Shown here: one piece after another, positions 9,805 through 32,308 of the stretch
Layout: each line of letters starts with the position of its first letter
How positions within the stretch are numbered: the stretch's first letter is position 1
Source of the DNA: Patescibacteria group bacterium
GTDB lineage: Bacteria > Patescibacteriota > Microgenomatia > UBA1400 > PJMF01
Direction: 5' to 3'
Assembly: GCA_016861205.1 (NCBI GenBank)
Contig: BOKX01000001.1
Span: 698,801-762,800 of the forward strand
DNA: 64,000 nucleotides
Position numbers and translations under genes: made by a program
Notes under the pieces: model-generated
Told to the model about the DNA's origin: nothing
Databases searched by the model: none
What the model saw: the letters and a program-made list of their open reading frames with translations, nothing else

Positions 9805-10256
9805 CCAACTCCAAAAGTGCTATCATAGTCCATGCAAAAAATTAAAATCGAGCAACACGCCCTGTGTGGTGGAGCGTGGTTTGCCGGCTGGTTATTCACC
9901 ATTGGCATCTTGGATCTCCATTTTTGGCAAGGTCTCTTAGGACTGGTGATCTGGCCCTACTACTTAGGTCGGGCACTGACTGGATTGATCTAGGCTCACT
10001 CATCACAAGCCATGAGCAATGAACTTGCCCTCCGCGACCAGTTACGAGCCGCACAGCGAGTAGCTTTGCCGCGCATTCCCAGCCCAACCGATACACAGTT
10101 GACCGTGGCATTTACTCTGAACACTTTGTCGGATCGTATTTAACTGACTTACCAAAGCTTGAGGGTGTCAGTTTTCTTGACCCATTTAAAGAAGCTAAAA
10201 CCAACGGTCAGAAACTAGCACTGCTCGATGTCGGGTGTGGCAACGGCAATTTTTTA

Positions 10257-10781: not shown

Positions 10782-11804
10782 ATGCCTCGCCGCTCCCGTG
10801 CCACCAAAACTCCTGCAGTTACTAAAACAGCCACTCGCAACTCGACCAAATCTGCTACACCGGCTGCTGCCACTGGCCACATTGCTGACATGGCTTTGCG
10901 AGCTTTAGCGATTTCGTGTGTTGTTGGTATTCACTTGTTGTCCGGCATACATAACTCACCGTACTGGAACTCATCGCCATTCCAAACCATCACAATTACC
11001 TATGACCAATTTGCTCGGTTGTGTGTGCCGTTGTTTGTGGCACTGTCTGGTTGGGGCTTGTGGCAAAAGTACCAGAAAACGGAGTTTAAACTGTGGGAGT
11101 TTTTCCAAAAACGTGTCTTTAAGCTCGTGCCACTCTACGCAGTCTGGACAGCTATTTTTATGCTCAGCTTTAGTTGGATTCCGGCCTGGCGACCTGGTGT
11201 GCCACAACCCAGTTTTCTCTACCAACTAATCTGGGGACGAGGTGATTATCACCTCTACTTCGTGCCGATGATTTTCCAGCTCTATTTAGCGTTTCCCATC
11301 ATCATGTGGTTGTACCGCCGCCAACCTTGGCTCGTTTTGTTCGTCGCCGCTATCGCTCAGGGTGCTTGGTACTGGTTCGCCGGTTTTCAACAACAGTTGC
11401 CCACTTTTCGCTACTTCCAAAGTGATCAGCAACAGTACATTTGGGCAGTTTCATGGATTTGGTACTTTGTACTTGGCATGACTTTGACACGCATTCATGC
11501 GGCGTATCAAAAACGACCAACCTTAGTTTGGCTGACTGCACTAGCTACGGGGTTGGGTTTCTGGTGGGCAGCTAGTAGTGCGCTGGGCGCAGTGCATGGT
11601 GGTCAAGATCCATTGATTGCCACCCGCTTTACCCGCTTCCCAGTGCTCGCCTATGCGACAGCCCTCATCCCGTTGCTGACCTGGCTAGCGCAAGGCCTCA
11701 AGTCTGCACCAAAGTGGGTGCTCCAAATTGGCAAACACTCGTACAGCATTTACCTTTCTCACACTTGGTTCTTGCGGTTGTTTTTTACCTGGTGGTATCG
11801 ATAA
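10782..11804 (+). CDS. Acyltransferase family 3 (OafA-like membrane O-acyltransferase)
   Basis: About 10 TM helices. N-terminal 'RALAISCVVGIH' resembles the AT3 conserved R...H motif. Confidence 0.6.
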   Translation: MPRRSRATKTPAVTKTATRNSTKSATPAAATGHIADMALRALAISCVVGIHLLSGIHNSPYWNSSPFQTITITYDQFARLCVPLFVALSGWGLWQKYQKTEFKLWEFFQKRVFKLVPLYAVWTAIFMLSFSWIPAWRPGVPQPSFLYQLIWGRGDYHLYFVPMIFQLYLAFPIIMWLYRRQPWLVLFVAAIAQGAWYWFAGFQQQLPTFRYFQSDQQQYIWAVSWIWYFVLGMTLTRIHAAYQKRPTLVWLTALATGLGFWWAASSALGAVHGGQDPLIATRFTRFPVLAYATALIPLLTWLAQGLKSAPKWVLQIGKHSYSIYLSHTWFLRLFFTWWYR

Positions 11805-17248: not shown

Positions 17249-18331
17249 ATGTATACTAGAAGCTCGATGAATAGCACTTTTTGGACCAAACTAGCCCGCC
17301 CAATCATTGGTTTGTCACCCATGGATGGGGTGACCGATCAGCCGTACCGGCAGATACAAAAAAAGTATGGTCAGCCAGCTTTGATTTACACGGAGTTCAC
17401 CAGTGTCGAAGGCCTGTGTCACGGAGCGGAACGCTTGCTCAAAGAGTTTCTTTTTGACGAAACCCAACGACCGGTGATTGGCCAGATTTACGGAAGTACC
17501 CCCGAGTACTTTCGCCAAGCTGCCATTTTGTTGTGCGAGCTGGGCTTTGATGGCATCGATATCAATATGGGTTGCCCCGCCAAAAATGTCGCCCATTCAG
17601 GCGCCGGGGCCGCGTTGATAAAAACACCTCACCTAGCTCAAGATATTATTCGGGCTGTTAAAACTGGTATCGCCGAGTGGCAGTCTGGTCAAACAACCGC
17701 CGACTGTCCCGACATTATTCCCAGCATCACGGCCGAGGTGGCCAGACGAAAAGCCCTGTTACCGACGGAGTATCAAACCACCCGACCGGTACCTGTCAGC
17801 GTTAAAACCCGAGTCGGTTACGACCAACCGGTGATTGCAGACTGGATTCCCACGCTATTGGAAATGGAACCAGCTACCATCGCGCTACACGGTCGGACCC
17901 TCAAACAACACTACGGTGGCGTGGCCAACTGGGAGTACATCGGCCAAGCGGCTGAGCTGGCCCACCAAACCTCTACCTTGCTGGTGGGCAATGGTGATGT
18001 CAGTTCCTACGAAGATGCGTTGCAAAAGTGTCAGACCTATCACTTAGACGGTGCCTTGATTGGCCGAGCCAGCTTTGGGAATCCCTATGTGTTTCAACCA
18101 GCCGATCAAACTCCGGCTTCGCCGACCCGTTTTCAAATTGCGCTCGAACACGCACAGCTGTTTGAACAAACGTTTAGTCATGATGAACGTTACAACTTTT
18201 TGCCGATGCGCAAGCATCTGGGTTGGTACGTCCGGGAAGTCGCGAACGCCAGTCAAATTCGAGTGGAGTTGTTTCAAACCAACACCAGCCAGGAAGTGGC
18301 GACTATCCTAAACCACCATGGCTTGTTATAA
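17249..18331 (+). CDS. tRNA-dihydrouridine synthase (Dus family)
   Basis: 'PMDGVTD' and 'IDINMGCP' FMN/TIM-barrel Dus motifs. Likely start at MNSTF (17267). Confidence 0.8.
   Translation: MYTRSSMNSTFWTKLARPIIGLSPMDGVTDQPYRQIQKKYGQPALIYTEFTSVEGLCHGAERLLKEFLFDETQRPVIGQIYGSTPEYFRQAAILLCELGFDGIDINMGCPAKNVAHSGAGAALIKTPHLAQDIIRAVKTGIAEWQSGQTTADCPDIIPSITAEVARRKALLPTEYQTTRPVPVSVKTRVGYDQPVIADWIPTLLEMEPATIALHGRTLKQHYGGVANWEYIGQAAELAHQTSTLLVGNGDVSSYEDALQKCQTYHLDGALIGRASFGNPYVFQPADQTPASPTRFQIALEHAQLFEQTFSHDERYNFLPMRKHLGWYVREVANASQIRVELFQTNTSQEVATILNHHGLL
18322..18330 (+). promoter_or_regulatory. Extended -10 element TGTTATAAT upstream of the tRNA-Val locus
   Basis: TGnTATAAT match ending about 11 nt before the first tRNA-like sequence. 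No clear -35. Confidence 0.3.
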
Positions 18332-18341
18332 TACGTCTCGA

Positions 18342-18388
18342 GGTCGCATAGTCTCAGTTGGTTAGAGCGCTCGATTCACATTCGAGAG
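18342..18388 (+). pseudogene. 5' half of a disrupted tRNA-Val(CAC) gene (acceptor/D-arm/anticodon arm)
   Basis: GGTCGCA-TA-G(T)CTC-AGTTGGTTA-GAGC-G-CTCGA-TTCACAT-TCGAG-AG, then non-tRNA sequence. The matching 3' half is at 24976-25003. Confidence 0.7.
18378..18388 (+). repeat. Direct repeat ACATTCGAGAG (left junction / att core)
   Basis: An identical 11-mer recurs at 24965-24975, directly abutting the tRNA 3' half. Confidence 0.7.
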
Positions 18389-18458
18389 TTCGAACACTCC
18401 ACCCACATTCGTGAGTCCGAGTACTGAGGCAATGCAGCCAAGAGTCAAAAAAGAATGA

Positions 18459-18535
18459 GGTCAATTAGCTCAGTTGGTTAGAGCGCGCGATTCACATTCG
18501 CGAGGTCACAAGTTCGAGTCTTGTATTGACCACCA
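18459..18535 (+). tRNA. tRNA-Val (anticodon CAC), element-borne intact copy
   Basis: GGTCAAT acceptor, D-loop AGTTGGTTA, anticodon loop TTCACAT, T-loop TTCGAGT, CCA encoded. Differs from the split host copy by compensatory stem changes. Confidence 0.85.
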
Positions 18536-18650
18536 TGTAGGGAAACAAACTAGCCCCTACGAGTTGAGAAAGGAGGAAGTATGCCTTTTTTCTCACGCCT
18601 AAGCGGAAGGCAACCTCGGTGAAACACAACGAGCTCTGCTCCGCACCTGT

Positions 18651-19664
18651 GTGACCTGGCAGAAACCAGTCATGCAGTATTTTCAAGGTCAATACCTTGA
18701 CCAACTAACACAGGAATGTGTTCAGTGGTATGTCCTCAATGGGCATCCACACCTCACAATTAAAAACCTCAAGAACTTTTTGGGGCGTTTTCTTATTTGG
18801 CTGAACGGCCGCGAACTCACAGTAAAAGAATGTCGAGAGTATGTTAAATACATGCAACTGAGAATCAAGCAATCATCAGCTGCTAGCGACACGGGTAGAT
18901 TACAAATGTTTCTGAAATGGTTGCACTACGAGAAGGACCTAACAGAACACGATTGGTCAAAAGATGTAAGAAGACCTAAACAAAAGGGTTCCCAAAAGCC
19001 ACCAGAAATGCTTTTAGCTCCAGAGAAATTGATTGAGTATATTAACCAAGTTACAGAGCCAGGTGAACATGACCATGCGTTGCACCGAGTGGCAAAAAAG
19101 GAGCATCGTGAATTCCTGCATTTTTACTGCCGAATGGGTTTGCGTCCAAATGAAGCTATCAAGATTAAACCTGAGCATGTGAATTTAGATGGTAACCCGC
19201 CCAGCGTGATGATTCTAAGAAAAGGTGGAAAATGGCGAAGTATAGGTTTACCTCTGGATTACCTTGAACCCATCCGAGAAAGAGTGAATAAAGGCCAATG
19301 GTTTAAGGTTTCACAAACTACACTTCAAAGGTACATGCGACAAATATCCAAACTAGCAGGCAGAGAAGTAAAATTGTACTCAATTAGAAAAAGTGTTGAC
19401 ACCTTTATGCTGGATGCTGGGGCACCAATTATGTTGGCTGCTGAGCATCAGGGACATACAGTTGCCATCATGCAAAAGGACTATGTCAAGTTTTCAGCAA
19501 AACAATCTAGCGAGGTCAACAATACCTACAACCCCTATATTGAACGTGGCAAGTTGCCAATTGAATACATGCTGCCTCACATCGACCAATTTGCCGAGAA
19601 GGTAAAAAAGCACCCAAAGTTTAAGGTGGAAAGAAACGAAAACAGCCTAGTTATACGATGGTAA
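18651..19664 (+). CDS. Tyrosine site-specific recombinase / integrase
   Basis: C-terminal catalytic domain motifs: 'GLRPNEAIKI' (Arg box), 'KGGKWRSIGL', 'YSIRKS', 'GHTVAIMQKDYVKF' (His...Tyr nucleophile region). Confidence 0.8.
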   Translation: MTWQKPVMQYFQGQYLDQLTQECVQWYVLNGHPHLTIKNLKNFLGRFLIWLNGRELTVKECREYVKYMQLRIKQSSAASDTGRLQMFLKWLHYEKDLTEHDWSKDVRRPKQKGSQKPPEMLLAPEKLIEYINQVTEPGEHDHALHRVAKKEHREFLHFYCRMGLRPNEAIKIKPEHVNLDGNPPSVMILRKGGKWRSIGLPLDYLEPIRERVNKGQWFKVSQTTLQRYMRQISKLAGREVKLYSIRKSVDTFMLDAGAPIMLAAEHQGHTVAIMQKDYVKFSAKQSSEVNNTYNPYIERGKLPIEYMLPHIDQFAEKVKKHPKFKVERNENSLVIRW

Positions 19665-20317
19665 GTACTATAATCAACGTAGCTATGTATCCTATTCACA
19701 TTTTTGATAAAGGTGGAAAGTCAATTTTCCGTAAGTACAACGAAGACACACTAAGAACAATTTATAGTGCTTCGAAGCTGGGAGCTAATTATGAAGTTTT
19801 CGTCTTGGTTGAAGGACTTATTTTCATGGCTATATTGAGCTACTACACACTGAGAGGTGAGGTTCAAGAGTACTTTGATTTCCTCTTTCAAGAACCAATG
19901 CCTGGGTTAGGCGCAGGTATCAACAAACTCAAGAAGTTACAAATTCTCGAAGACTTGCTAGAGGAAATTGAAGCATATAAAAAAGCAAGAAACGCATTTG
20001 CTCATGACCCTTTTCGGTTAAAGGCTATGGTGTTTACTGACTATCACGTCTCAGAAGAGTGTGAACGGCTTTTTGAGCAAGGAATGTTATTGCTTAATAA
20101 GCTTAGTCCTTTGGTACAGCCAGGATTTCCGACAATGGACGAGTATAAGAGGCGGTTTAAAGGAACTATTCCAGGGAACAACTTCGAAATTAAACCAACT
20201 CAAGCACTTCAGCAAGTCTTGGAAAAGCGACGTCGCGCATACTTAGAGATACCCAATGCGAAAAACAAGAGAAACCTTGAAATAATTGTCTCCGCGTTGG
20301 AGAAAGAGACCAGTTAA
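19658..20317 (+). CDS. HEPN-like protein (Rx4H motif), possible Abi/toxin RNase
   Basis: All-alpha protein with 'KKARNAFAHD' matching the HEPN R-x4-H catalytic motif. Start overlaps the integrase stop. Confidence 0.45.
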   Translation: MVSTIINVAMYPIHIFDKGGKSIFRKYNEDTLRTIYSASKLGANYEVFVLVEGLIFMAILSYYTLRGEVQEYFDFLFQEPMPGLGAGINKLKKLQILEDLLEEIEAYKKARNAFAHDPFRLKAMVFTDYHVSEECERLFEQGMLLLNKLSPLVQPGFPTMDEYKRRFKGTIPGNNFEIKPTQALQQVLEKRRRAYLEIPNAKNKRNLEIIVSALEKETS

Positions 20318-21138
20318 AAAATATCCTGCTCTTAGCTCAACGCTATCACCAATGCTAAACAAAGGTTTAAGTTTAGTGAGAATTGTGGATGATTCATATA
20401 AACTCCAGTTCTTGTGACTAGAAATGCCACTTCGATGGAAACTACTTCAAAAATGTGCCTCAATTTCGTCAAGAAACCTTGACATCGCCTAAGCTGCTGC
20501 GGAATCGAACCGTTATTGTTGAGTGCTGAGCCAAAAGCAGGATGTTAAAGGGCGCTGAAGGGATTATAGCAGGAACTAAACGCCGCTCTTCAGTCGTGCT
20601 CCTCCAACCCCAATCAGGTACTCAAGAAATTTGAAATGGCCTCCCCAAACCTTACCAAATTGGTCAGTTCTAACATCACTTGATGGCGTTGTCTGTCGCC
20701 TGTGAAGAAATGATTACATCCGCATGGTCACGAGCCTTTTTGCTCTCGTGGTCTAAGCACCAGCAGGGTTGTTGGTTATCACCAAGTGCCTACGTGGTCA
20801 GCGTTTACGACCTATCATCTAAACGTTTGAACGCCTTGTTATCCTCATGAAGCCTAATCAGGGCACTTTCCCGAGTGCTGTCGGGAACGCATCATCCGTT
20901 TTAGGTCGGGCACTTTTCTGTGAAGCGACGATTCGCCCGATTTAACCTCCCAGTCGCGTAACTGCAACGTGGGATTTCTAGCCACAAAAAAACCGCCAAC
21001 AAAAAAGCAAATAATTGCTTATTTATTAGCGGTTCAGTGCGATTTTTTCGCTAGAAAACCTATGTTAAACCCGAGGGTATCTAACTAATCACAGCTTTGT
21101 CAAGCGATATCTAGACCGAGAAAGTATGGTACCTACCA

Positions 21139-21585
21139 TCAGGTAGAGGTACCTGAAACTGTAGCGGGGGGGGTGGGTTGTGTTAGTGCCAACCTTTCTG
21201 CCATTTGAGTATGGTGAAGGTATCGCTTGAACCGACGTGTGGCCTGCCCTTTGTGAAATAGTTTGACCTGTTTAGAACCGTTAAAAACGGCTTCAGCTTT
21301 GTCGATGTGGTCTAGCAGACTCCAGAGTTGGCGGGAACTGCCACTCAACCCCTGTGACTGGTAAGTTAGGTGTAAGCAAGTTCGACATTTAGGTGGTTTG
21401 CTGCCATCCACTTGGTACAATGCAGTTACTCTTTTCCCACATGAGCACAAAAACCAGAAACGCCGACCGCCAAAGTATGGGAAAGTCGTATCGAACTTAA
21501 CACCATACCTGTACTTAGCTACAGTTGGTTCAGGGAATTCACTGATTTTAATTTTGGGAGTGGTTTCAACGACGCTTTTCTTCAT
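21139..21585 (-). CDS. Hypothetical Zn-ribbon protein
   Basis: CxC...CxxC ('CSCGKRV...CRTC') cluster. Contains a G8/C8 homopolymer near the 3' end of the CDS. Confidence 0.4.
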   Translation of the reverse strand: MKKSVVETTPKIKISEFPEPTVAKYRYGVKFDTTFPYFGGRRFWFLCSCGKRVTALYQVDGSKPPKCRTCLHLTYQSQGLSGSSRQLWSLLDHIDKAEAVFNGSKQVKLFHKGQATRRFKRYLHHTQMAERLALTQPTPPATVSGTST

Positions 21586-21647
21586 GGTATTGAGTATTGG
21601 TATCGAAATAACTAGCGATAAGCCAACAATATCGGTACCGTATCACA

Positions 21648-21962
21648 CTAAAGTGACCAGTCACGTTTCACTGTCTCGGCGCACTTTTGATAAAACTCAG
21701 TGGAGTTAAATGTGCCATATGTATCAGTAAGCGATTGCTGAACCTCTTGCTTCACTTCTTCACTTGCATTTTGTGTGGCTTTCTCGGCTCCTGACTTAAT
21801 TTCAGCCATGGCAACCAATCTACGCTGCGAACACTCAGCCATAACACTCAAGTAAATTTGTCGTTCCGAGAGAGTTGGAATGTCCACAAAAACCAAACGA
21901 AATAATAACCCTGTAGCAAAGAGTAAGGTCAAAGTAGTTATTATTCGTAAAAATCTTGGCAA
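21648..21962 (-). CDS. Small membrane-anchored hypothetical protein
   Basis: 104-aa ORF with one N-terminal TM helix. Confidence 0.35.
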   Translation of the reverse strand: MPRFLRIITTLTLLFATGLLFRLVFVDIPTLSERQIYLSVMAECSQRRLVAMAEIKSGAEKATQNASEEVKQEVQQSLTDTYGTFNSTEFYQKCAETVKRDWSL

Positions 21963-22212
21963 ACAAGTTCTCCGCTTATCGGTCTTAATTTCTATGGTGA
22001 TTCACTTCTTCAGTTTCTTAATCCACCCTTCAATAACACCATAAAGAAATGCACCTACGCACAATACGATAGTCGCTACTAACGCCGTTAACAGTGTAGA
22101 AATCATGCTGTTTCCTTTGCTATTTATCGACATCATTATATCTGGACAATTTAATAAATGCTAGTCATCAACTGTAGAGCTATTGACTGCAAAACTTTAG
22201 CCTTGTATTTGC

Positions 22213-22443
22213 ATGAGGCAATACAATCCCCCTGACCAAATATTAAGGAGAAAATTCGGAATACGTGTCCGCGAGCTAAGAAAAAAACTTGGGTTATCAC
22301 AGGAGGAGCTTGGCTTTAAGGCAAATATTCACCGCACATACGTTGGTGCTGTGGAGCGAGGCGAACAGAACGTGTCATTAGACAATATTGGTCGCTTAGC
22401 AAAATACCTCAAGGTGACACTTTCGGAGTTGTTTAATCTTTAG
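22213..22443 (+). CDS. XRE-family (Cro/CI-type) HTH transcriptional regulator
   Basis: 'IRVRELRKKLGLSQEELGFKANIHRTYVGAVERGE' is a classic HTH_3 signature. Divergent from the two small minus-strand genes. Confidence 0.8.
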   Translation: MRQYNPPDQILRRKFGIRVRELRKKLGLSQEELGFKANIHRTYVGAVERGEQNVSLDNIGRLAKYLKVTLSELFNL

Positions 22444-22507
22444 ATGTCTTTTCACCTATCATAAACTGTCCGACACAGTCACATGATGGCGTATTATAAT
22501 CGGCCGT

Positions 22508-23704
22508 ATGGCTAAACTTTTATCTGAGCCAACATTCATTCCAAAATTCCTTGACGGGGCAATTCTCAGTTCCGGCGTTGGATTTTCTCATTTCTTGATT
22601 GATGCACACTATTTGTTCTTTCGCAGTGAACTCTTTCAACAAACTCGGGAGCAATTTCCCAGTGTTATTATTGACCCAGTCACACATGGGCTTCAGTTCC
22701 AGAACACATACGAAAAACCAACATTTCAACAACTCCCGTATTCATCGGTCACTGACATTCAAAGAGTAATATCTGACCCCACCTACCGGCTTAATTCCTT
22801 AGTTGTACCTGTTATTGATTTTCAGGTGACAAACCAAGCCGCTTTCATTATTGCCCCATATCTCTGCACTGATGATGTAAACAGTACCATCTTCAGTAAC
22901 AATTTAACTATGCTCGGTGAAACGTTGTATATCCTTAATGGGAGAGACTCACAACCACCATTACTGGCTCCAATTTGCATTGGTGGAAACGTCTTACGTG
23001 ACAGGCGGCTAACCGATTATATTATTGACTGCTATAAAGCAGAACCTTTCCATTCTGCGGTTCAGGGTTACTTTATTATTATGGTCACCGATTTTGACGA
23101 CCGACTCGCAGACGAAGACCAACTGCTAGGCTTAGCTGATATAACCTACCAACTTTCTCAAGACAAAGATGTAATAATCAATCATCTGGGTGGTTTCGGT
23201 GAAGTATTAAATGCAATTGGGGCCTCCGCATTTGTTAGCTCTCCCGGAGGTGGTGAAACTTTCTCACTAAAACAGCTTCAACAAGATTCAAAAAACATTC
23301 GTGGTCGGAACCACAGCCTCTGGAGATATGTCCCGGAACTGTTCGACTATATCAGTGAAGATTTACTTGGCCCCGAGGAAATTAATTATAGATGTGATTG
23401 TGCTGGGTGCGCTAATGCTGGCACATTTCCCTCTGTTTATGCAGCGAGAAAAATTCATTTCCTAATCAAAAGAATGGCAGCCATCCAACTTACCACGGGC
23501 ATGTCTCGTGATGAAAAAATTCAGAATTTAATTCAGAGACTTTCAGCTGCAGAGTCTCTTGCCAGGGGTTATGTGGTAAATCTCGGTGCAGATATCAAAG
23601 TAGCTCATTTGACAAAATGGCGCAGGATTCTAGAAATCTCTAGAGGGTGGAATTACCAACAAGACGATGATGAGCTTGAAAGATTACTGCAAGAACTTGG
23701 TTGA
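22508..23704 (+). CDS. tRNA-guanine transglycosylase (TGT)-fold protein, DpdA-like candidate DNA/RNA base-exchange enzyme
   Basis: Order and spacing of TGT hallmarks: 'IDFQV' (Asp-x-FQV), 'HLGGFGE' (GGLxxGE) near residue 230, 'ELFDYI' (MFDCV-like catalytic Asp) near 280, and a Zn site 'CDCAGC...H' near 296-317. Confidence 0.5.
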   Translation: MAKLLSEPTFIPKFLDGAILSSGVGFSHFLIDAHYLFFRSELFQQTREQFPSVIIDPVTHGLQFQNTYEKPTFQQLPYSSVTDIQRVISDPTYRLNSLVVPVIDFQVTNQAAFIIAPYLCTDDVNSTIFSNNLTMLGETLYILNGRDSQPPLLAPICIGGNVLRDRRLTDYIIDCYKAEPFHSAVQGYFIIMVTDFDDRLADEDQLLGLADITYQLSQDKDVIINHLGGFGEVLNAIGASAFVSSPGGGETFSLKQLQQDSKNIRGRNHSLWRYVPELFDYISEDLLGPEEINYRCDCAGCANAGTFPSVYAARKIHFLIKRMAAIQLTTGMSRDEKIQNLIQRLSAAESLARGYVVNLGADIKVAHLTKWRRILEISRGWNYQQDDDELERLLQELG

Positions 23705-24171
23705 TTATTATGATTCAAATCATACCTGATACTAACATTCTCGTGTCTGGCATGATGGGTTATAAGACTCCGGCAAGGCAAATCCTCAACCTTTCTCTAG
23801 CTAAAAAAATCCAGCTACTCGGATGTAGTCACACACTAGCAGAATTTACAGCTAAAGTTAATTTGCCTAGAATGAAAAAGTACTGGCAAAAAAAGTATTT
23901 CTCGCCGGATAAAATTATTCAGGACTACCAAACAATGGTTATTATGCATGAGCCAACCCCGCTCTACTTAGACACTGTCATACCAATTAGGGACCCAAAA
24001 GATGCAATTTTTTTTCAACTAGCCTTAAGTAGCAGATGCAAAATCATTATTTCTAATGACCAGGATGCTTTAGTGTTAAGTGGACATCAGGGAATAAAGG
24101 TTGTCACACCGGAAGTTTTCATCGAAGCATACTATAGAGTGAACCCCGTTCAATTGGAAAGTGCATCATAA
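23701..24171 (+). CDS. PIN-domain nuclease (TA-toxin-like)
   Basis: N-terminal 'IPDTNIL' plus 'IRDPKDAIF' and 'ISNDQD' acidic residues of the PIN fold. ATG overlaps the stop of the TGT-like gene (ATGA coupling). Confidence 0.65.
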   Translation: MIIMIQIIPDTNILVSGMMGYKTPARQILNLSLAKKIQLLGCSHTLAEFTAKVNLPRMKKYWQKKYFSPDKIIQDYQTMVIMHEPTPLYLDTVIPIRDPKDAIFFQLALSSRCKIIISNDQDALVLSGHQGIKVVTPEVFIEAYYRVNPVQLESAS

Positions 24172-24857
24172 AGAAACAACTCTGAAACAAAATTGCGCTT
24201 GTCTTGCTTTGCTTTATCTTGAGACTTCGGGCAGATGATTTCCTCTACGTTTTTGCCATCCTCAGACAGGATAAATAATCCCACATTTTGTCTAGCCAAG
24301 ATTTCATCATCAACCAAATGACGGTACTGAGCCAAAATAGCCAAATATGTTTTATCAGCAAAATATTTGTACCTGTTTGCTTGAATGAATCCACGTCTCC
24401 AATCTCTTAATTTTGCTTCAATGGCTATCATTTCGCTCACAAGTGGAACCCAACCGTTAACTTTATAGTAATAATTATCATCAATTTTCTTGACGTATCC
24501 GTTGTCTTCTAACTCCCTCAACAAATGATATTTTAGGTAACTTTTACTTACGGGAACAGATTGAACCAACTCATCAATACCTCTTGGCGGCAGTTTCTTT
24601 CTGTCATCGATGTCCGGTAATTGTCGCAGTACCTGGAAAAAGTTTTCCTTAAGGAGAGGTGTCACTTGCTTGCGTTTCTTTCGTATGGCACATTTCTTCG
24701 GATTCAACTTAACCAAAACAAGGTCAGCCCTACCGTAACCGGCACTAACCTCTTGCCTTACCAAAAATCCTTGGTTTGAAAAATGCCTCGCAAGGTAACG
24801 AACCATTGTGAGTTCATCCATAGTCTTAGTATACCTAATTTTTCTGACAGCCAGCAA
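24150..24857 (-). CDS. Hypothetical protein with predicted winged-helix segment
   Basis: 235-aa basic protein. 'SKSYLKYHLLRELEDNGYVKKIDDNYYYKV' is wHTH-like. No confident catalytic motif. Confidence 0.4.
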   Translation of the reverse strand: MLAVRKIRYTKTMDELTMVRYLARHFSNQGFLVRQEVSAGYGRADLVLVKLNPKKCAIRKKRKQVTPLLKENFFQVLRQLPDIDDRKKLPPRGIDELVQSVPVSKSYLKYHLLRELEDNGYVKKIDDNYYYKVNGWVPLVSEMIAIEAKLRDWRRGFIQANRYKYFADKTYLAILAQYRHLVDDEILARQNVGLFILSEDGKNVEEIICPKSQDKAKQDKRNFVSELFLYDALSN

Positions 24858-24964
24858 GTGTAATAGTTTAGCGGTGACAAGGATGATATAGTATTAGGTA
24901 GAAAGAAAAAACAGTCACCAGGCTAAGGCGTTAGTCGCAGACACTAATTGATACTGTTTGACCT

Positions 24965-24975
24965 ACATTCGAGAG
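24965..24975 (+). repeat. Direct repeat ACATTCGAGAG (right junction / att core)
   Basis: Identical to 18378-18388. Confidence 0.7.
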
Positions 24976-25003
24976 GTCCCAGGTTCGAGTCCTGGTGCGA
25001 CCA
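24976..25003 (+). pseudogene. 3' half of the disrupted tRNA-Val(CAC) gene (variable loop, T-arm, acceptor 3' strand)
   Basis: GTC-CCAGG-TTCGAGT-CCTGG-TGCGACC-A. TGCGACC is the exact complement of the GGTCGCA acceptor at 18342. Confidence 0.7.
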
Positions 25004-26370: not shown

Positions 26371-26858
26371 CCACACCAAAATAAGGTGGAGATGAGGAGG
26401 AATGACCTCCTGTCCGCAACCGCGACTCCAGCATCATCTACAGACATAGTTACTTCTTGGTGTAGTTAGGTCGGTAAAGCAACCAGCCGTTTCCTAACCC
26501 CGTCGATGAATTGTCTTGGGTTACTTGGCATCAACAGACCAAGCAACTGTCACAGTGACTGTGTTGAACACCCATTCCCGACCGCCACTGAGAATCGAAG
26601 AATGAATGCTTGTTTACGCTAAAGCGTAAGCCAAGTCTTGGTTGTCACCAGCCACAAAAGCGACTAGTTTGTTCCAAGCTTTACTGAGCGTATTGCCAGT
26701 TAGTTTTTTGACCCTGTTTTACCTCGCGTGAGTCAACGAGCGTCTGCAGATGTTAAAGTGCGTATCACGTCAAAGCAATACATCCCCTATAGCCTATATT
26801 ATAGCTCATCGGGGCAAGTTTTTAAAGGTTTTTAGCCTGGAGAACTAAGATACCATCC

Positions 26859-29139: not shown

Positions 29140-30801
29140 CTAGACTTCGACAATTGCCGCCATGATGACTGGTTCACGCTGAATAACTTTGTACAACTTG
29201 CGACCGAGTCGCTTCTCGATCGTTCGTTTAACTTCATCATCCTTGGCCTTCCGACCCAGCTCGTTAACAATCTCAGCGGTAGTTCGCTTAATGAACTCAA
29301 TGACTTCGTCTGCTTCTTTCATGAACACAAAACCACGGGATACCACTGAGACATGCTTCAGGTCATAGCCACGCTTGGTGCGTGGCACAATGATGACGAT
29401 CATGCCAGCTTGGCTCAAAGCCCGCCGGTCAGCCAACACCACCGGACCAACGTCACCGACTCCCAAACCATCAACAGTTCTGGCTTGTAAGGTGACTTGA
29501 TCGATGACCTCAGGCCGACCAGTGCCAAAGCCAAGGACCTCACCGTGACCTGGAATTAAAACCCGCTCGGGCGCAACACCCACTTGGTCTGCCACCAACT
29601 CCACAAACTTTACTCGGTGTCGGTCAGCGCCGCCAATTGGCATCACAAATTGAGGCTTCACCATGCCCAGCAACTCTTGTTGCTCTGGAGCACTGGCGTG
29701 GCCAGATTGGTGCAGATTTGGTTCCAAATCAGGGTAGATGACGTGCACACCGTTGCGGCATAGTTCATCAATCGCAGCATAGTACGGCACTTCATTGCCA
29801 GGGATAGCATCGGCTGAGAAAACGACTTGGTCGCTAGGTTTGATCTGCAGCATTGGGTGGTCCCCATACACAGCCCGCACCAGCGAGGAGCCTTCTTGCC
29901 CTTGGCTACCGGCAATAATGACACACACCTGACTATCAGGCAGATTGCTCAAATCGCGTTTATCAACTTGAATACCTTGGGGCAGATGCAGTTTTTTCAA
30001 GGTAACTGCTGCCTCGACGTTCTGCTCCACCGATCGCCCCACAAATGCAACTTTGCGACCGTGTTTAGCAGCTGAATCGATAATCTGTTGGATGCGATGA
30101 ATATGAGAACTCATCAACGTCACGATAAACTTACCTTTGGTCTTACCCATGGCAGTATCCAAGACTGGCCCAACGGTTGATTCGGACTTGGTCCACTCTG
30201 ACCGTTCCACCCGCAGACAGTCGATCATCATACACAACACACCTTGGTTTCCGAGTTCGGTGATGTGTGCGAAATCTGGCTTGACTCCGTCAACCGGATT
30301 TGGATCGAGCTTAAAGTCTGAGCCGTGATAGAAAACACCCGCAGGGGTTTTGATGGCATAGTGCCGAGTATCTGGCACTGAGTGTGTCATGGCGATGGGT
30401 TGCGCTTGGAACTTTTGAGTTATTTCAAACCACTGGTGATCAGTCACCACCTTGATTTCTCGCTCGATACCACCGTCGCGCATCCGATTAGCAGCAAACC
30501 CAGCTGTCAAAGCTGAGGCATATATCGGAAACTCCGGCAAACTCGGCAGAATGTACGGTAACGCCGCGATGTGGTCATCGTGGCCGTGTGTCAGAATCAT
30601 ACCGACGATCTTCTTACCTGACTCGAGCTGTTTCAGCAGGTAGCTGATGTCAGGAATGAGCACATCGACACCCGGCATGTACATGTCGGGAAAACCGATT
30701 CCACAATCCACAATCAGCATTTCTTCATCGACCTGATAAAGAAACATATTTTGGGTAACATTACCCATTCCCCCCATCGGGAAAACACTAACTTGATTCA
30801 T
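29140..30801 (-). CDS. rnj: Ribonuclease J (metallo-beta-lactamase/beta-CASP)
   Basis: 'THGHDDH' MBL motif, beta-CASP region and C-terminal domain. Length 553 aa. Confidence 0.85.
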   Translation of the reverse strand: MNQVSVFPMGGMGNVTQNMFLYQVDEEMLIVDCGIGFPDMYMPGVDVLIPDISYLLKQLESGKKIVGMILTHGHDDHIAALPYILPSLPEFPIYASALTAGFAANRMRDGGIEREIKVVTDHQWFEITQKFQAQPIAMTHSVPDTRHYAIKTPAGVFYHGSDFKLDPNPVDGVKPDFAHITELGNQGVLCMMIDCLRVERSEWTKSESTVGPVLDTAMGKTKGKFIVTLMSSHIHRIQQIIDSAAKHGRKVAFVGRSVEQNVEAAVTLKKLHLPQGIQVDKRDLSNLPDSQVCVIIAGSQGQEGSSLVRAVYGDHPMLQIKPSDQVVFSADAIPGNEVPYYAAIDELCRNGVHVIYPDLEPNLHQSGHASAPEQQELLGMVKPQFVMPIGGADRHRVKFVELVADQVGVAPERVLIPGHGEVLGFGTGRPEVIDQVTLQARTVDGLGVGDVGPVVLADRRALSQAGMIVIIVPRTKRGYDLKHVSVVSRGFVFMKEADEVIEFIKRTTAEIVNELGRKAKDDEVKRTIEKRLGRKLYKVIQREPVIMAAIVEV

Positions 30802-30816
30802 AGAAACTCCTTATCT

Positions 30817-31644
30817 CTACGACTTAACTTTGGCCAGTTGCTTCCAAGCAAACCGCCAATAATACATACCTTTTCGCCAATTAAGCTTGAACGGCAACCG
30901 TTTTAACCAACGTGGTTCGGGGTCAGGCTCTCGCCGCTCAGCAAACACGGCCATCATTACCATGGCCAAGAAAGCAAATGATGAAAACCAATACGCGCTA
31001 TATGTTGGCTTAAAACTAACATCACTAACTAGATAACCAATTCCATGCAACACAAAACAAAATCCGATCAATAACTTCATAATCCGCATGAACATTGCTG
31101 ATGGCGCTTCATACTTCCAGATTGCTAAGAAACCAACTATACCAGTCAGAAATGCTAAACCCATCACTCCATAAAAAGCAGCATGCTCTATCTCAATTTC
31201 AAATGGCACCCACAGGTTTATCAGTGCAAAACCTGTCATCATCAACGCTACTCCCATATAGATAGCCAAGTGTGACAACATTTGGTGAAAAAATTCTGAG
31301 TGGCTAAAAATGTCATACAAGGGATCGCGCACTCGACGCAAATCAAAACTCTTCGTTAAAGAGTGAATAACTACAAACGCAGAAATAAACAAAAACATGG
31401 TACTAAAAACAGTATCGACCACAAACAACTCGGTTACCGATAAACCCAAATTCAATTGCTGTTTAAATGACACAAAAATAAAACTCTTCATCCACACAAA
31501 CACCAATGGCATGAGCACAAAAGCATATACAAACTGAACCAGGTCAAACTTCATTATTTCGTGTTTGCCGTTGTGACGATACAGAATTGAAGCACTCACA
31601 ATAGCCAGCAACGGCAGCAGAAAAAGAAAAACAATCATGTTCAT
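30817..31644 (-). CDS. Polytopic membrane protein (hypothetical)
   Basis: 275 aa with about 8 TM helices. Confidence 0.45.
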   Translation of the reverse strand: MNMIVFLFLLPLLAIVSASILYRHNGKHEIMKFDLVQFVYAFVLMPLVFVWMKSFIFVSFKQQLNLGLSVTELFVVDTVFSTMFLFISAFVVIHSLTKSFDLRRVRDPLYDIFSHSEFFHQMLSHLAIYMGVALMMTGFALINLWVPFEIEIEHAAFYGVMGLAFLTGIVGFLAIWKYEAPSAMFMRIMKLLIGFCFVLHGIGYLVSDVSFKPTYSAYWFSSFAFLAMVMMAVFAERREPDPEPRWLKRLPFKLNWRKGMYYWRFAWKQLAKVKS

Positions 31645-31654
31645 AGTTTTGTCG

Positions 31655-32308
31655 TTATAGTAACGCCTCGCTTACCTCAGCATGCAACTCAGCTGTAGCC
31701 TGCTGGTCTTGCACCCACCCTAGCACTTTTGGCAGCTTTTGAAAATCGGCTTCAAACGCTTGTTTCACGTTGGGGGCTCGCAAGGCCGCGGCTGGATGGT
31801 ACATCGGTAATATAAACATAGTCTGACCATTCCAAGCAATTTTGTGTAATCGACCATGGACTTGAGAAATTTTAACTCCTGGCAAGAATTTGCCCATACT
31901 GTAACGACCCAAGGTCACAATCAGAGCTGGCTGCAAAATCGCTATCTCCCGATCCAAAAAAGGTCTAAAGGCCGTAATCTCATCTGGCATGGGATCACGA
32001 TTGCCCGGTGGCCGAACCTTCACAATGTTGCTTATATATACCTCGGCTGGCGAGTAGCCAACTTTGGTTAAAACCTGCCGAAATAGCTGCCCTGACCGCC
32101 CCACAAAGGGCCTTCTTTGCCGAGCTTCTTCCTCACCAGGAGCCTCACCGATAAACATGATTTTGGCGTCACTGCTGCCTTCACCAGGCACGATATCACG
32201 ACCGGTGTTCGCCAACGGCAACTCGCCGGCGGCGGCTTCCATATCTGCACATACTGCAGTTAACTGCTCTGCCTTAGAAAGAGCGCTATCCATTGAGCTC
32301 ATGGGCAT
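31655..32308 (-). CDS. Uracil-DNA glycosylase, family 4
   Basis: 'FIGEAPGEEE' and 'GRSG' family-4 UDG motifs. C-terminal His motif present. Confidence 0.8.
   Translation of the reverse strand: MPMSSMDSALSKAEQLTAVCADMEAAAGELPLANTGRDIVPGEGSSDAKIMFIGEAPGEEEARQRRPFVGRSGQLFRQVLTKVGYSPAEVYISNIVKVRPPGNRDPMPDEITAFRPFLDREIAILQPALIVTLGRYSMGKFLPGVKISQVHGRLHKIAWNGQTMFILPMYHPAAALRAPNVKQAFEADFQKLPKVLGWVQDQQATAELHAEVSEALL

Follow-up and report, generated by a model that had tools for sequence, protein, structure and literature searches.

A small island in a Patescibacteria genome splits the host tRNA-Val(CAC) gene and carries a complete tRNA-Val(CAC) of its own

Introduction

Integration into a host tRNA gene that is not rebuilt afterwards is known from tRNA-dependent lysogeny, shown experimentally in actinobacteriophages by Guerrero-Bustamante and Hatfull (mBio 2024; PMC10865867). 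The phages concerned are Fionnbharth (a K4 mycobacteriophage), Cluster L, Gaia and Gordonia CQ2/DL. In Fionnbharth and others, attP and attB share 8–17 bp, the host tRNA is not rebuilt and viable lysogens need a phage tRNA of the same isotype (PMC10865867). As a probable case outside the Actinobacteria, the same work names prophage Lj965 of Lactobacillus johnsonii; later papers citing it mention Sinorhizobium prophages. Here, we describe a 6.6-kb island in a 64,000-nucleotide (nt) stretch of a Patescibacteria group bacterium (GenBank assembly GCA_016861205.1, contig BOKX01000001.1, positions 698,801–762,800). This whole stretch is called the window, and positions refer to it unless another locus is named. 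The island lies inside a tRNA-Val(CAC) gene located between Dus and a ComF-like gene, and it carries a complete tRNA-Val(CAC) next to its integrase gene (int). We consider it highly probable that it is a site-specific island which split the host gene and that its own tRNA compensates for the loss.

A first-pass annotation of this DNA had already read the locus as a gene broken and replaced by the same insertion. The reading is borne out by an empty site and by the distinctness of the element tRNA, but it has a precedent in the actinobacteriophages (PMC10865867). In the literature found, the coverage of which was not exhaustive, no description of such a break-and-replace insertion was seen for bacteria of the candidate phyla radiation (CPR) or for non-phage islands.

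Results

The Host Gene Is Split at an 11-bp Core

Comparison loci and contigs are designated by "L" numbers. L100, a 92-kb contig from Logan SRR27901410, was found by exact look-up of the ComF-like protein and shows Dus, an intact tRNA-Val(CAC) and ComF in direct succession. The parts of the split gene and of the element tRNA are as follows.

18342–18388, plus strand: orphan 5' half of the host tRNA-Val(CAC), with the acceptor 5' strand, the D arm and the anticodon arm to position 45; corresponds to L100 9874–9920
18378–18388, plus strand: attL copy of the 11-bp core ACATTCGAGAG
18459–18535, plus strand: complete element tRNA-Val(CAC), CCA encoded (ARAGORN; Rfam 71.1 bits)
24965–24975, plus strand: attR copy of the 11-bp core
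24976–25003, plus strand: orphan 3' half of the host tRNA-Val(CAC), with the variable loop, the T arm, the acceptor 3' strand and the discriminator A; corresponds to L100 9921–9948

The left flank of the window ends at L100 position 9920 and the right flank begins at position 9921, with 99.1–99.6% identity over 8.3 kb and 9.1 kb. Nothing in L100 matches the 6,587-bp insert. Because the flanks meet exactly in L100, the tRNA is intact there and the insert is absent, the insertion is a strain-level presence/absence polymorphism, precise and accompanied by an 11-bp duplication. The insert consists of a 6,576-bp island plus one duplicated copy of the core. The G+C content (GC) is 0.419 exactly across the insert versus about 0.50 in the flanks, as had been noticed at first reading. 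An uninterrupted tRNA-Val at this locus exists not only in the conspecific L100 but also in six related species, where a C39-like peptidase, Dus, an intact tRNA-Val(CAC) and ComF occur in that order. In L085, L017 and L021, the tRNA differs from the joined host gene only by an extra T present in the latter and by one compensatory anticodon-stem pair. In two related species, extra sequence separates the intact tRNA-Val from ComF (L039 11220–13995, 2.8 kb; L014 5156–6967, 1.8 kb); neither interval holds an integrase homologue or core-like scars.

The coordinates given in the first-pass annotation for the halves, the 11-mers and the element tRNA all held on direct reading. The 5' half (GGTCGCATAGTCTCAGTTGGTTAGAGCGCTCGATTCACATTCGAGAG) represents the first 47 nt of the gene and the 3' half (GTCCCAGGTTCGAGTCCTGGTGCGACCA) the last 28 nt. 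The acceptor strands GGTCGCA and TGCGACC were confirmed as exact complements, and the anticodon arm of the 5' half reads CTCGA-TTCACAT-TCGAG. Joined together, the halves were called as tRNA-Val(cac) by ARAGORN, alone and in the reconstructed empty site. They had been described as a canonical 77-nt cloverleaf; the tRNA identity stands, but the gene measures 75 nt to the discriminator base, CCA not being encoded, and one extra T is bulged in the D stem (TAGTCTCAG). The uninterrupted L100 gene, which is identical to the joined halves and scores 60.8 bits against the Rfam tRNA model (threshold 29 bits), has the same T. The extra T is native for this reason, and its explanation as pseudogene decay following the insertion was rejected. 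As a separate observation, the extra bulged U (UAGuCUCAG) lies at 18351–18352 in the window, at 9883–9884 in L100 and at about 11141 in a remnant in L020; it lowers the score of the native tRNA-Val(CAC) of this lineage to 60.8 bits, versus 71–74 bits for the relatives and the element tRNA.

The 11-mer ACATTCGAGAG occurs in exactly two copies in the 64 kb, one at each junction, in agreement with the first reading. With one mismatch allowed, there were four matches versus 0.87 expected, all four in tRNA-Val contexts; the two mismatched copies are at 18405, in the left arm of the element, and at 18494, in the element's own tRNA. The 11-mer spans anticodon-loop positions 35–38, the 3' strand of the anticodon stem and two further bases. 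To the left of the core, attL has the host TTC and attR the element CCT. To the right, attR continues into host sequence and attL into element sequence (TTCGAACACTCC...), in which direct reading and Rfam revealed no tRNA 3' part. The two junction regions scored 23.9 bits (attL) and 25.7 bits (attR), both under the Rfam threshold, and ARAGORN called no tRNA at either; the left junction does run into non-tRNA sequence, as had been stated.

An anticodon-loop-type crossover by a tyrosine integrase had been proposed. The anticodon-arm location and the type of recombinase agree with this proposal, but the crossover took place within the 11 bp common to attP and attB and not in the anticodon loop proper. 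An anticodon-loop sublocation class of tRNA-targeting islands was reportedly defined by Williams in 2002. In L006, the junction-to-junction identity is made up of ACATTCG, one mismatch and AAG, which is compatible with a 6–8 bp overlap inside ACATTCG(AGAG). The predicted attP is ...CTGTTTGACCTACATTCGAGAGTTCGAACACTCC..., reading CTGTTTGACCT-ACATTCGAGAG-TTCGAACACTCC at the junction, and the predicted attB is ...CGATTCACATTCGAGAGGTCCCAGG..., reading CGATTC-ACATTCGAGAG-GTCCCAGG.

The Element-Borne tRNA and Its Surroundings

The complete gene at 18459–18535 is the sole intact tRNA-Val called by ARAGORN in the window. It is part of the insert, with 70 nt between it and the left junction, and int lies a short way downstream. 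Compared with the host gene, 13 of the 75 aligned positions differ, and the changes in the acceptor, anticodon and T stems are compensatory; the acceptor strands, for example, are GGTCAAT/ATTGACC versus GGTCGCA/TGCGACC in the host gene. Since the whole gene is within the insert and shows these differences with compensatory stems, it is a distinct, intact, element-borne gene and not a junction hybrid. This was the view of the first-pass annotation on both the gene and its stems, and the gene is absent from the empty site. The segments surrounding it and the right-arm end are listed below.

18389–18458, plus strand: element left arm (P' arm of attP), 70 nt, beginning with TTCGAAC
18536–18671, plus strand: leader between the element tRNA and int, 136 nt, with a hairpin GTAGGG...CCCTAC at 18537–18560
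24933–24964, plus strand: right-arm end (P arm of attP), with a degenerate tRNA-5'-half look, AGTCGCA ... TTTGA CCTACAT

The left arm contains a second core-like copy, ACATTCGTGAG, at 18405–18415. Such a copy was seen 26–41 nt after the first one in the left arms of the window, L004 and L006, the other members of the family being without it. The possibility that the left arm beyond this copy is a decayed tRNA 3' half, left by a formerly classical attP, received no support, the alignment being not above those of shuffled sequences (p ~0.17). At the other end, the right-arm AGTCGCA (GGACTTT in L006) is complementary to the host 3' acceptor strand, with a 6–7-nt match to the acceptor 5' strand, and a pairable TTTGA/TCGAG stem surrounds CCTACAT. 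The whole attR region (24933–25003) resembles a degenerate tRNA-Val(UAC-like), its 25.7 bits being below the Rfam threshold. A similar tRNA-like attR exists in L006 (13595–13672, 23.6 bits), and L008 is without this feature. The second core copy and the tRNA-like right arm may be scars of earlier recombination or accessory binding sites.

The leader folds into several hairpins, and 19 of the 42 predicted pairs show compensatory changes in five relatives (window 18536–18671 compared with L008 4569–4750, L094, L097, L098 and L005). Its possible roles are those of a regulatory or processing RNA or of a terminator-like hairpin placed directly after the tRNA. A terminator scan of the element found none, and Rfam detected no intron or other RNA family in it.

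The Integrase

18672–19664, plus strand: tyrosine integrase, 330 amino acids (aa) from ATG; alternative GTG start at 18651

The first-pass annotation placed a tyrosine integrase at the start of the insertion, and this was corroborated by matches to PF00589 (E=1e-7, catalytic domain only in Pfam) and to the phrog_1 integrase family. The protein is identical to database protein P0001; the database Dus and Int proteins start at later codons than the longest open reading frames (ORFs). Among named or solved proteins, those closest to it are XerA, XerD, XerC and IntI4, each with a weak E-value. In the alignment to IntI4 (2a3v), the residues R158, K184, R239, H262 and Y271 are in place, and Y236 takes the place of the first His of the R-K-H-R-H/W-Y set; all of these, Y236 included, are invariant in 23 homologues. 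By these residues and matches, the protein is predicted to be a tyrosine recombinase, and the weak E-values point to a distant Xer/IntI-like enzyme. No arm-binding domain was recognised by Pfam, where only the catalytic domain was matched, the other matches being weak. A repeat search of the element gave no arm-type repeat sets beyond the tRNA-derived repeats.

A Conserved attP-tRNA-int Cassette

Homologues of the integrase numbered 29, all from CPR-type metagenome bins, two of them with the source names Pacebacteria and Woesebacteria. Their DNA context was examined where DNA was available, and a metagenome scan contributed four of the loci; the integrase profile found no relative in a viral contig collection. 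Besides the window, seven distinct CPR loci (L004, L005, L006, L008, L093, L094 and L098) possess the same cassette: an orphan tRNA-Val 5' half ending within the 3' strand of the anticodon stem, 30–70 nt, a complete tRNA-Val, a structured leader of 120–180 nt, and int. Their integrases are 56–75% identical to that of the window. The host acceptor stems vary across the cassette loci (GGTCGCA, GGTCAAT, GGGCGGT, GGACTCA, GGATCTG), and the acceptor strand of the orphan half differs from that of the neighbouring complete tRNA in every locus but L004. The element tRNAs score 64–74 bits against Rfam and keep their cloverleaves via compensatory changes. In a motif scan of more than 100 loci, orphan tRNA-Val 5' halves were limited to the loci with this integrase.

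Right ends were located in two loci, L006 and L008, and both contain a tRNA-Val 3' half. The contig of L096 begins inside the element tRNA. L005 splits tRNA-Val(GAC) and not CAC, and its element tRNA is a Val tRNA (NAC) with a masked wobble base. About 117 masked Ns at L005 9664–9780, in the element tRNA region, hide the spacing and the wobble base, and another tRNA or tRNA fragment may be concealed there too.

The cargo varies. In L004 and L098, two larger relatives, it includes a phage-type replication initiator and very large unknown proteins; L008 carries PycTM and a cyclase, L097 an AAA_15 ATPase, and other relatives DUF4145 and CTD10/MC6-7 genes. Because the cargo differs between loci, the attP-tRNA-int cassette is the conserved unit of the family. 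As a side observation, the PycTM and guanylate-cyclase-like gene pair of L008 (10324–11540) is Pycsar-like, and a LOOT RNA match (RF03000; 67.9 bits, gathering score 46.4) lies just upstream of it, inside the element, on the minus strand at 10126–10229.

Possible Traces of tRNA Replacement in Relatives

L020 (JBDLIL010000009.1) is the closest relative by FtsK identity (79.5%). Between Dus and ComF (11110–11340), it shows a TGATATAAT box and, after it, a broken GGTCGCA-type 5' remnant, in which GGTCGCATGGTCTCAGTTGG and TTAGAGCG are separated by a 39-nt palindromic insert; the remnant has the same extra T as the window. Twelve nucleotides after the remnant stands a different, complete tRNA-Val(CAC) (73.8 bits), and ComF follows. 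Neither an integrase nor a 3' half was found at this Dus-ComF locus. It looks like an element tRNA left behind after loss of the element, a fixed replacement scar, and is the one clear example.

In L008 (4368–4570 and 11600–11680), the pairing partner of the 3' half at attR (...CGGGTCCA, acceptor CGGGTCC) is a truncated fragment further upstream (GGACTCGTGGCTCAGGG), not the adjacent 5' half (GGATCTG). Because of this pairing, the nested tRNA-Val fragments suggest serial insertions. Taken together, the scars in L020 and L008 suggest that a host tRNA can be permanently replaced by that of an element.

Cargo of the Island and Neighbouring Features

19658–20317, plus strand: cargo ORF, 219 aa, no family match
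21139–21585, minus strand: cargo ORF, 148 aa, Cys-rich motifs, no family match; called as a gene in L001 and L002
22213–22443, plus strand: XRE/C-protein-like helix-turn-helix (HTH) regulator, 76 aa (HTH_3 E=5e-17; PADLOC "control protein" E=8e-22)
22508–23704, plus strand: cargo ORF, 398 aa, no family match
23701–24171, plus strand: PIN-domain putative toxin (PIN_3 E=1.9e-11; TIGR00305 50.5 bits, above cutoff)
24150–24857, minus strand: cargo ORF, about 218–235 aa, no firm family match
Various coordinates: unassignable ORFs, four in total

The ORFs of 219, 148, 104 and 398 aa had no match in PADLOC, PHROGs, Pfam or NCBIfam, and the 235-aa ORF had a weak match to Csa3 alone (E=6e-4) across the same collections. 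The PHROGs matches of the element were the integrase, the HTH regulator and one family of unknown function (the PIN protein), with no others. Pfam, PHROGs and other profile searches of the element proteins showed no virion or structural, lysis, replication or conjugation genes, and because of this gene content the element is classified as a small integrative island rather than a prophage.

Two further features of the region were observed. A second strain-level indel exists between the DUF5648 gene and FtsK, where 15 bp of the window (26842–26856) correspond to about 1.58 kb in L100 (11787–13363), carrying a PMT_2 glycosyltransferase gene (522 aa, minus strand). A second low-GC stretch (30750–31750, GC 0.37–0.42), with a strongly negative GC skew, lies about 6 kb beyond the right end of the element.

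Discussion

A Model of Splitting and Compensation

We propose that the Xer-like integrase recombined attP with the host tRNA-Val(CAC) at the common ACATTCGAGAG. The shared core would be too short to rebuild a tRNA, so that the host gene would be left as two dead halves, and the island's own tRNA-Val(CAC) would compensate for it. Such complementation is suggested because all members carry a tRNA-Val, CAC like the split gene wherever it is readable, and because the element tRNA adjoins attP and retains its cloverleaf through compensatory substitutions. Two candidate promoters enter into the model.

18324–18332, plus strand: putative host tRNA-Val promoter, extended −10 box TGTTATAAT, overlapping the Dus stop codon, 9 nt before the tRNA 5' end
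24879–24901, plus strand: conserved right-arm block AAGGATGATATAGTATTAGGTAG, with an extended −10-like box TGATATAGT (24884–24892) directed toward the core

Once the island is integrated, transcription from the captured host tRNA promoter would run through the orphan 5' half into the element tRNA, and possibly on into int, and normal tRNA processing would free the tRNA from this transcript. Boxes resembling TGnTATAAT are found at the same place before the host tRNA-Val genes of L012–L021, L085 and L100; a box of this type lies 7–25 nt upstream of all host tRNA-Val genes, the present orphan halves included, and none was found before the element tRNAs across the cassette loci. It is this distribution that points to use of the host promoter. 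In the excised circle, the −10-like box of the right arm would serve as the promoter, across attP toward the tRNA and int. This role is supported by conservation: the block is nearly identical in L008, the integrase of which is only about 57% identical, and TGATATAAT occurs at the same place in L006. That both promoters are functional is our working hypothesis.

A whole tRNA carried as cargo would not need to match the acceptor and T stems of the host, and any host with the conserved tRNA-Val anticodon arm could be used. Such a tRNA would also avoid the mismatched acceptor stem expected of a hybrid tRNA, part host and part element, in a new host. If the element tRNA is the only copy, the host would come to depend on the tRNA of the island.

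Alternative Explanations

Several observations weigh against this model. A simple −35/−10 promoter scan scored neither of the proposed promoters, no recombination directionality factor is recognisable in the element, and no excised circle or attP junction was observed. In L097, a complete tRNA stands beside int with no visible 5' half. The model accounts neither for the second core-like copy nor for the resemblance of the right arm to a tRNA. Finally, a tRNA-Val(UAC) might read GUG by wobble, and the tRNA count given here covers 64 kb.

This last point leads to the alternative of a real insertion in which the element tRNA has no complementing role, the host tRNA-Val(CAC) being dispensable, for instance because a UAC isoacceptor reads GUG. 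The tRNA would then counter a tRNA-cleaving defence, supply codons, or be a relic of the origin of attP. Conflict-type cargo is present in the element and its relatives (the PIN toxin, Pycsar-like genes, AAA_15); the anti-defence idea was itself raised for phages by the authors of PMC10865867. However, every member has a tRNA-Val beside attP, with the CAC anticodon of the split gene wherever readable (in L005, GAC was split and the anticodon NAC is masked), the element tRNAs retain perfect cloverleaves by compensatory changes (64–74 bits), and the replacement tRNA of L020 has outlasted its element. We regard this alternative as unlikely.

An assembly or binning artefact, or else a functional split tRNA with halves joined in trans as in Nanoarchaeum, was considered because the genome is metagenome-derived and because split tRNA genes do exist in some archaea. 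Against an artefact, the junctions and the 6,587-bp insert of three separate Logan assemblies (DRR258780–82) are 100% identical to those of the window. As for joining in trans, the sequence following the 5' half and that preceding the 3' half have at most 6 nt of exact complementarity, on which ground trans-splicing was rejected, and a complete replacement gene is present. Both variants are very improbable. The intact tRNA next to int might also be a regenerated hybrid of a host 5' part and an element 3' part, as in a classical island, and the layout, with a tRNA, int and a 3' tRNA fragment at the far end, does resemble classical islands (PMC4383910). But an orphan 5' half lies apart from the intact tRNA, 70 nt before it, the acceptor strands of the intact tRNA (GGTCAAT/ATTGACC) both differ from those of the host (GGTCGCA/TGCGACC), and comparison with the empty site places the whole intact tRNA within DNA that is absent from L100. 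This refutes the hybrid, the probability of which we consider practically nil. Splitting of the host gene and compensation by the island tRNA remains our preferred explanation.

Consequences for tRNA Genes and Genomes

Destruction of a tRNA gene coupled to its replacement in cis would extend beyond temperate actinophages to small non-phage islands, to CPR/Patescibacteria and to an integrase family without a recognised arm-binding domain. In the reduced genomes of CPR bacteria, few spare tRNA genes are expected. By the rationale proposed above, the whole-gene cassette should broaden the host range and would make the host island-dependent. Island finders which need a regenerated tRNA and a long repeat would miss such elements or misplace their boundaries. 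The compact attP-tRNA-int module could also become an integration tool for organisms without genetics.

We further put forward, tentatively and as somewhat less probable than its negation, that the cassette acts as a ratchet permanently replacing host tRNA-Val genes in CPR bacteria. An element would destroy the resident tRNA-Val and supply its own; later elements would insert into the new gene, giving nested halves as in L008; the element would then decay and its tRNA would remain as the only copy, as in L020. If this were true, mobile elements would be a main driver of tRNA gene turnover in minimal CPR genomes, and the ratchet would provide a route by which split tRNA genes could arise.

Comparison with Known Systems

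Split tRNA genes are known in Nanoarchaeota and Caldivirga, and insertion of mobile elements has been proposed as the origin of the splits. The present locus resembles them in that the 5' and 3' halves are separated near the anticodon arm. It differs by the absence of leader and trailer complementarity for joining in trans, by its bacterial host and by the presence of a full replacement gene; the host halves are most likely dead.

With the classical tRNA- and tmRNA-targeting islands and prophages (the Islander concept; PMC4383910), the element shares the position of int at the tRNA end, a crossover in the anticodon arm, flanking direct repeats and a 3' fragment at the far end. Classical islands carry a copy of the displaced tRNA segment, of about 40–50 bp, and so regenerate their target. 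In the present case, attP and attB have 11 bp in common, and the destroyed target is replaced by a whole second gene.

The closest likeness is with tRNA-dependent lysogeny (PMC10865867), of which three defining features are found in the window element: a tyrosine integrase, its catalysis being here a prediction, with an attB overlapping a host tRNA gene; a short core (11 bp, compared with 8–17 bp) with no tRNA at attL or attR; and a cognate element-borne tRNA (71.1 bits in the window, and present in the seven related loci too). The differences are also clear. The window element is a 6.6-kb island without virion or replication genes and does not qualify as a temperate phage, its host belongs to the CPR/Patescibacteria and its target is tRNA-Val(CAC). 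The phage enzymes are lambda-like with arm sites, whereas that of the window, with 330 aa, is probably a distant Xer/IntI-like protein in which no arm-binding domain was recognised. In contrast to the phages, the tRNA of the window starts no more than 70 nt from the attP core, co-oriented with int and behind the putative host promoter, in a compact cassette conserved in the family. The tRNA requirement was demonstrated for the phages (PMC10865867); in the window element, such dependence would follow if its tRNA is the only copy. What appears to be new here is the host phylum, the small non-phage island with toxin and regulator cargo, the integrase without a recognised arm domain, and an element tRNA that abuts attP, apparently behind the promoter of the host tRNA which it would replace.

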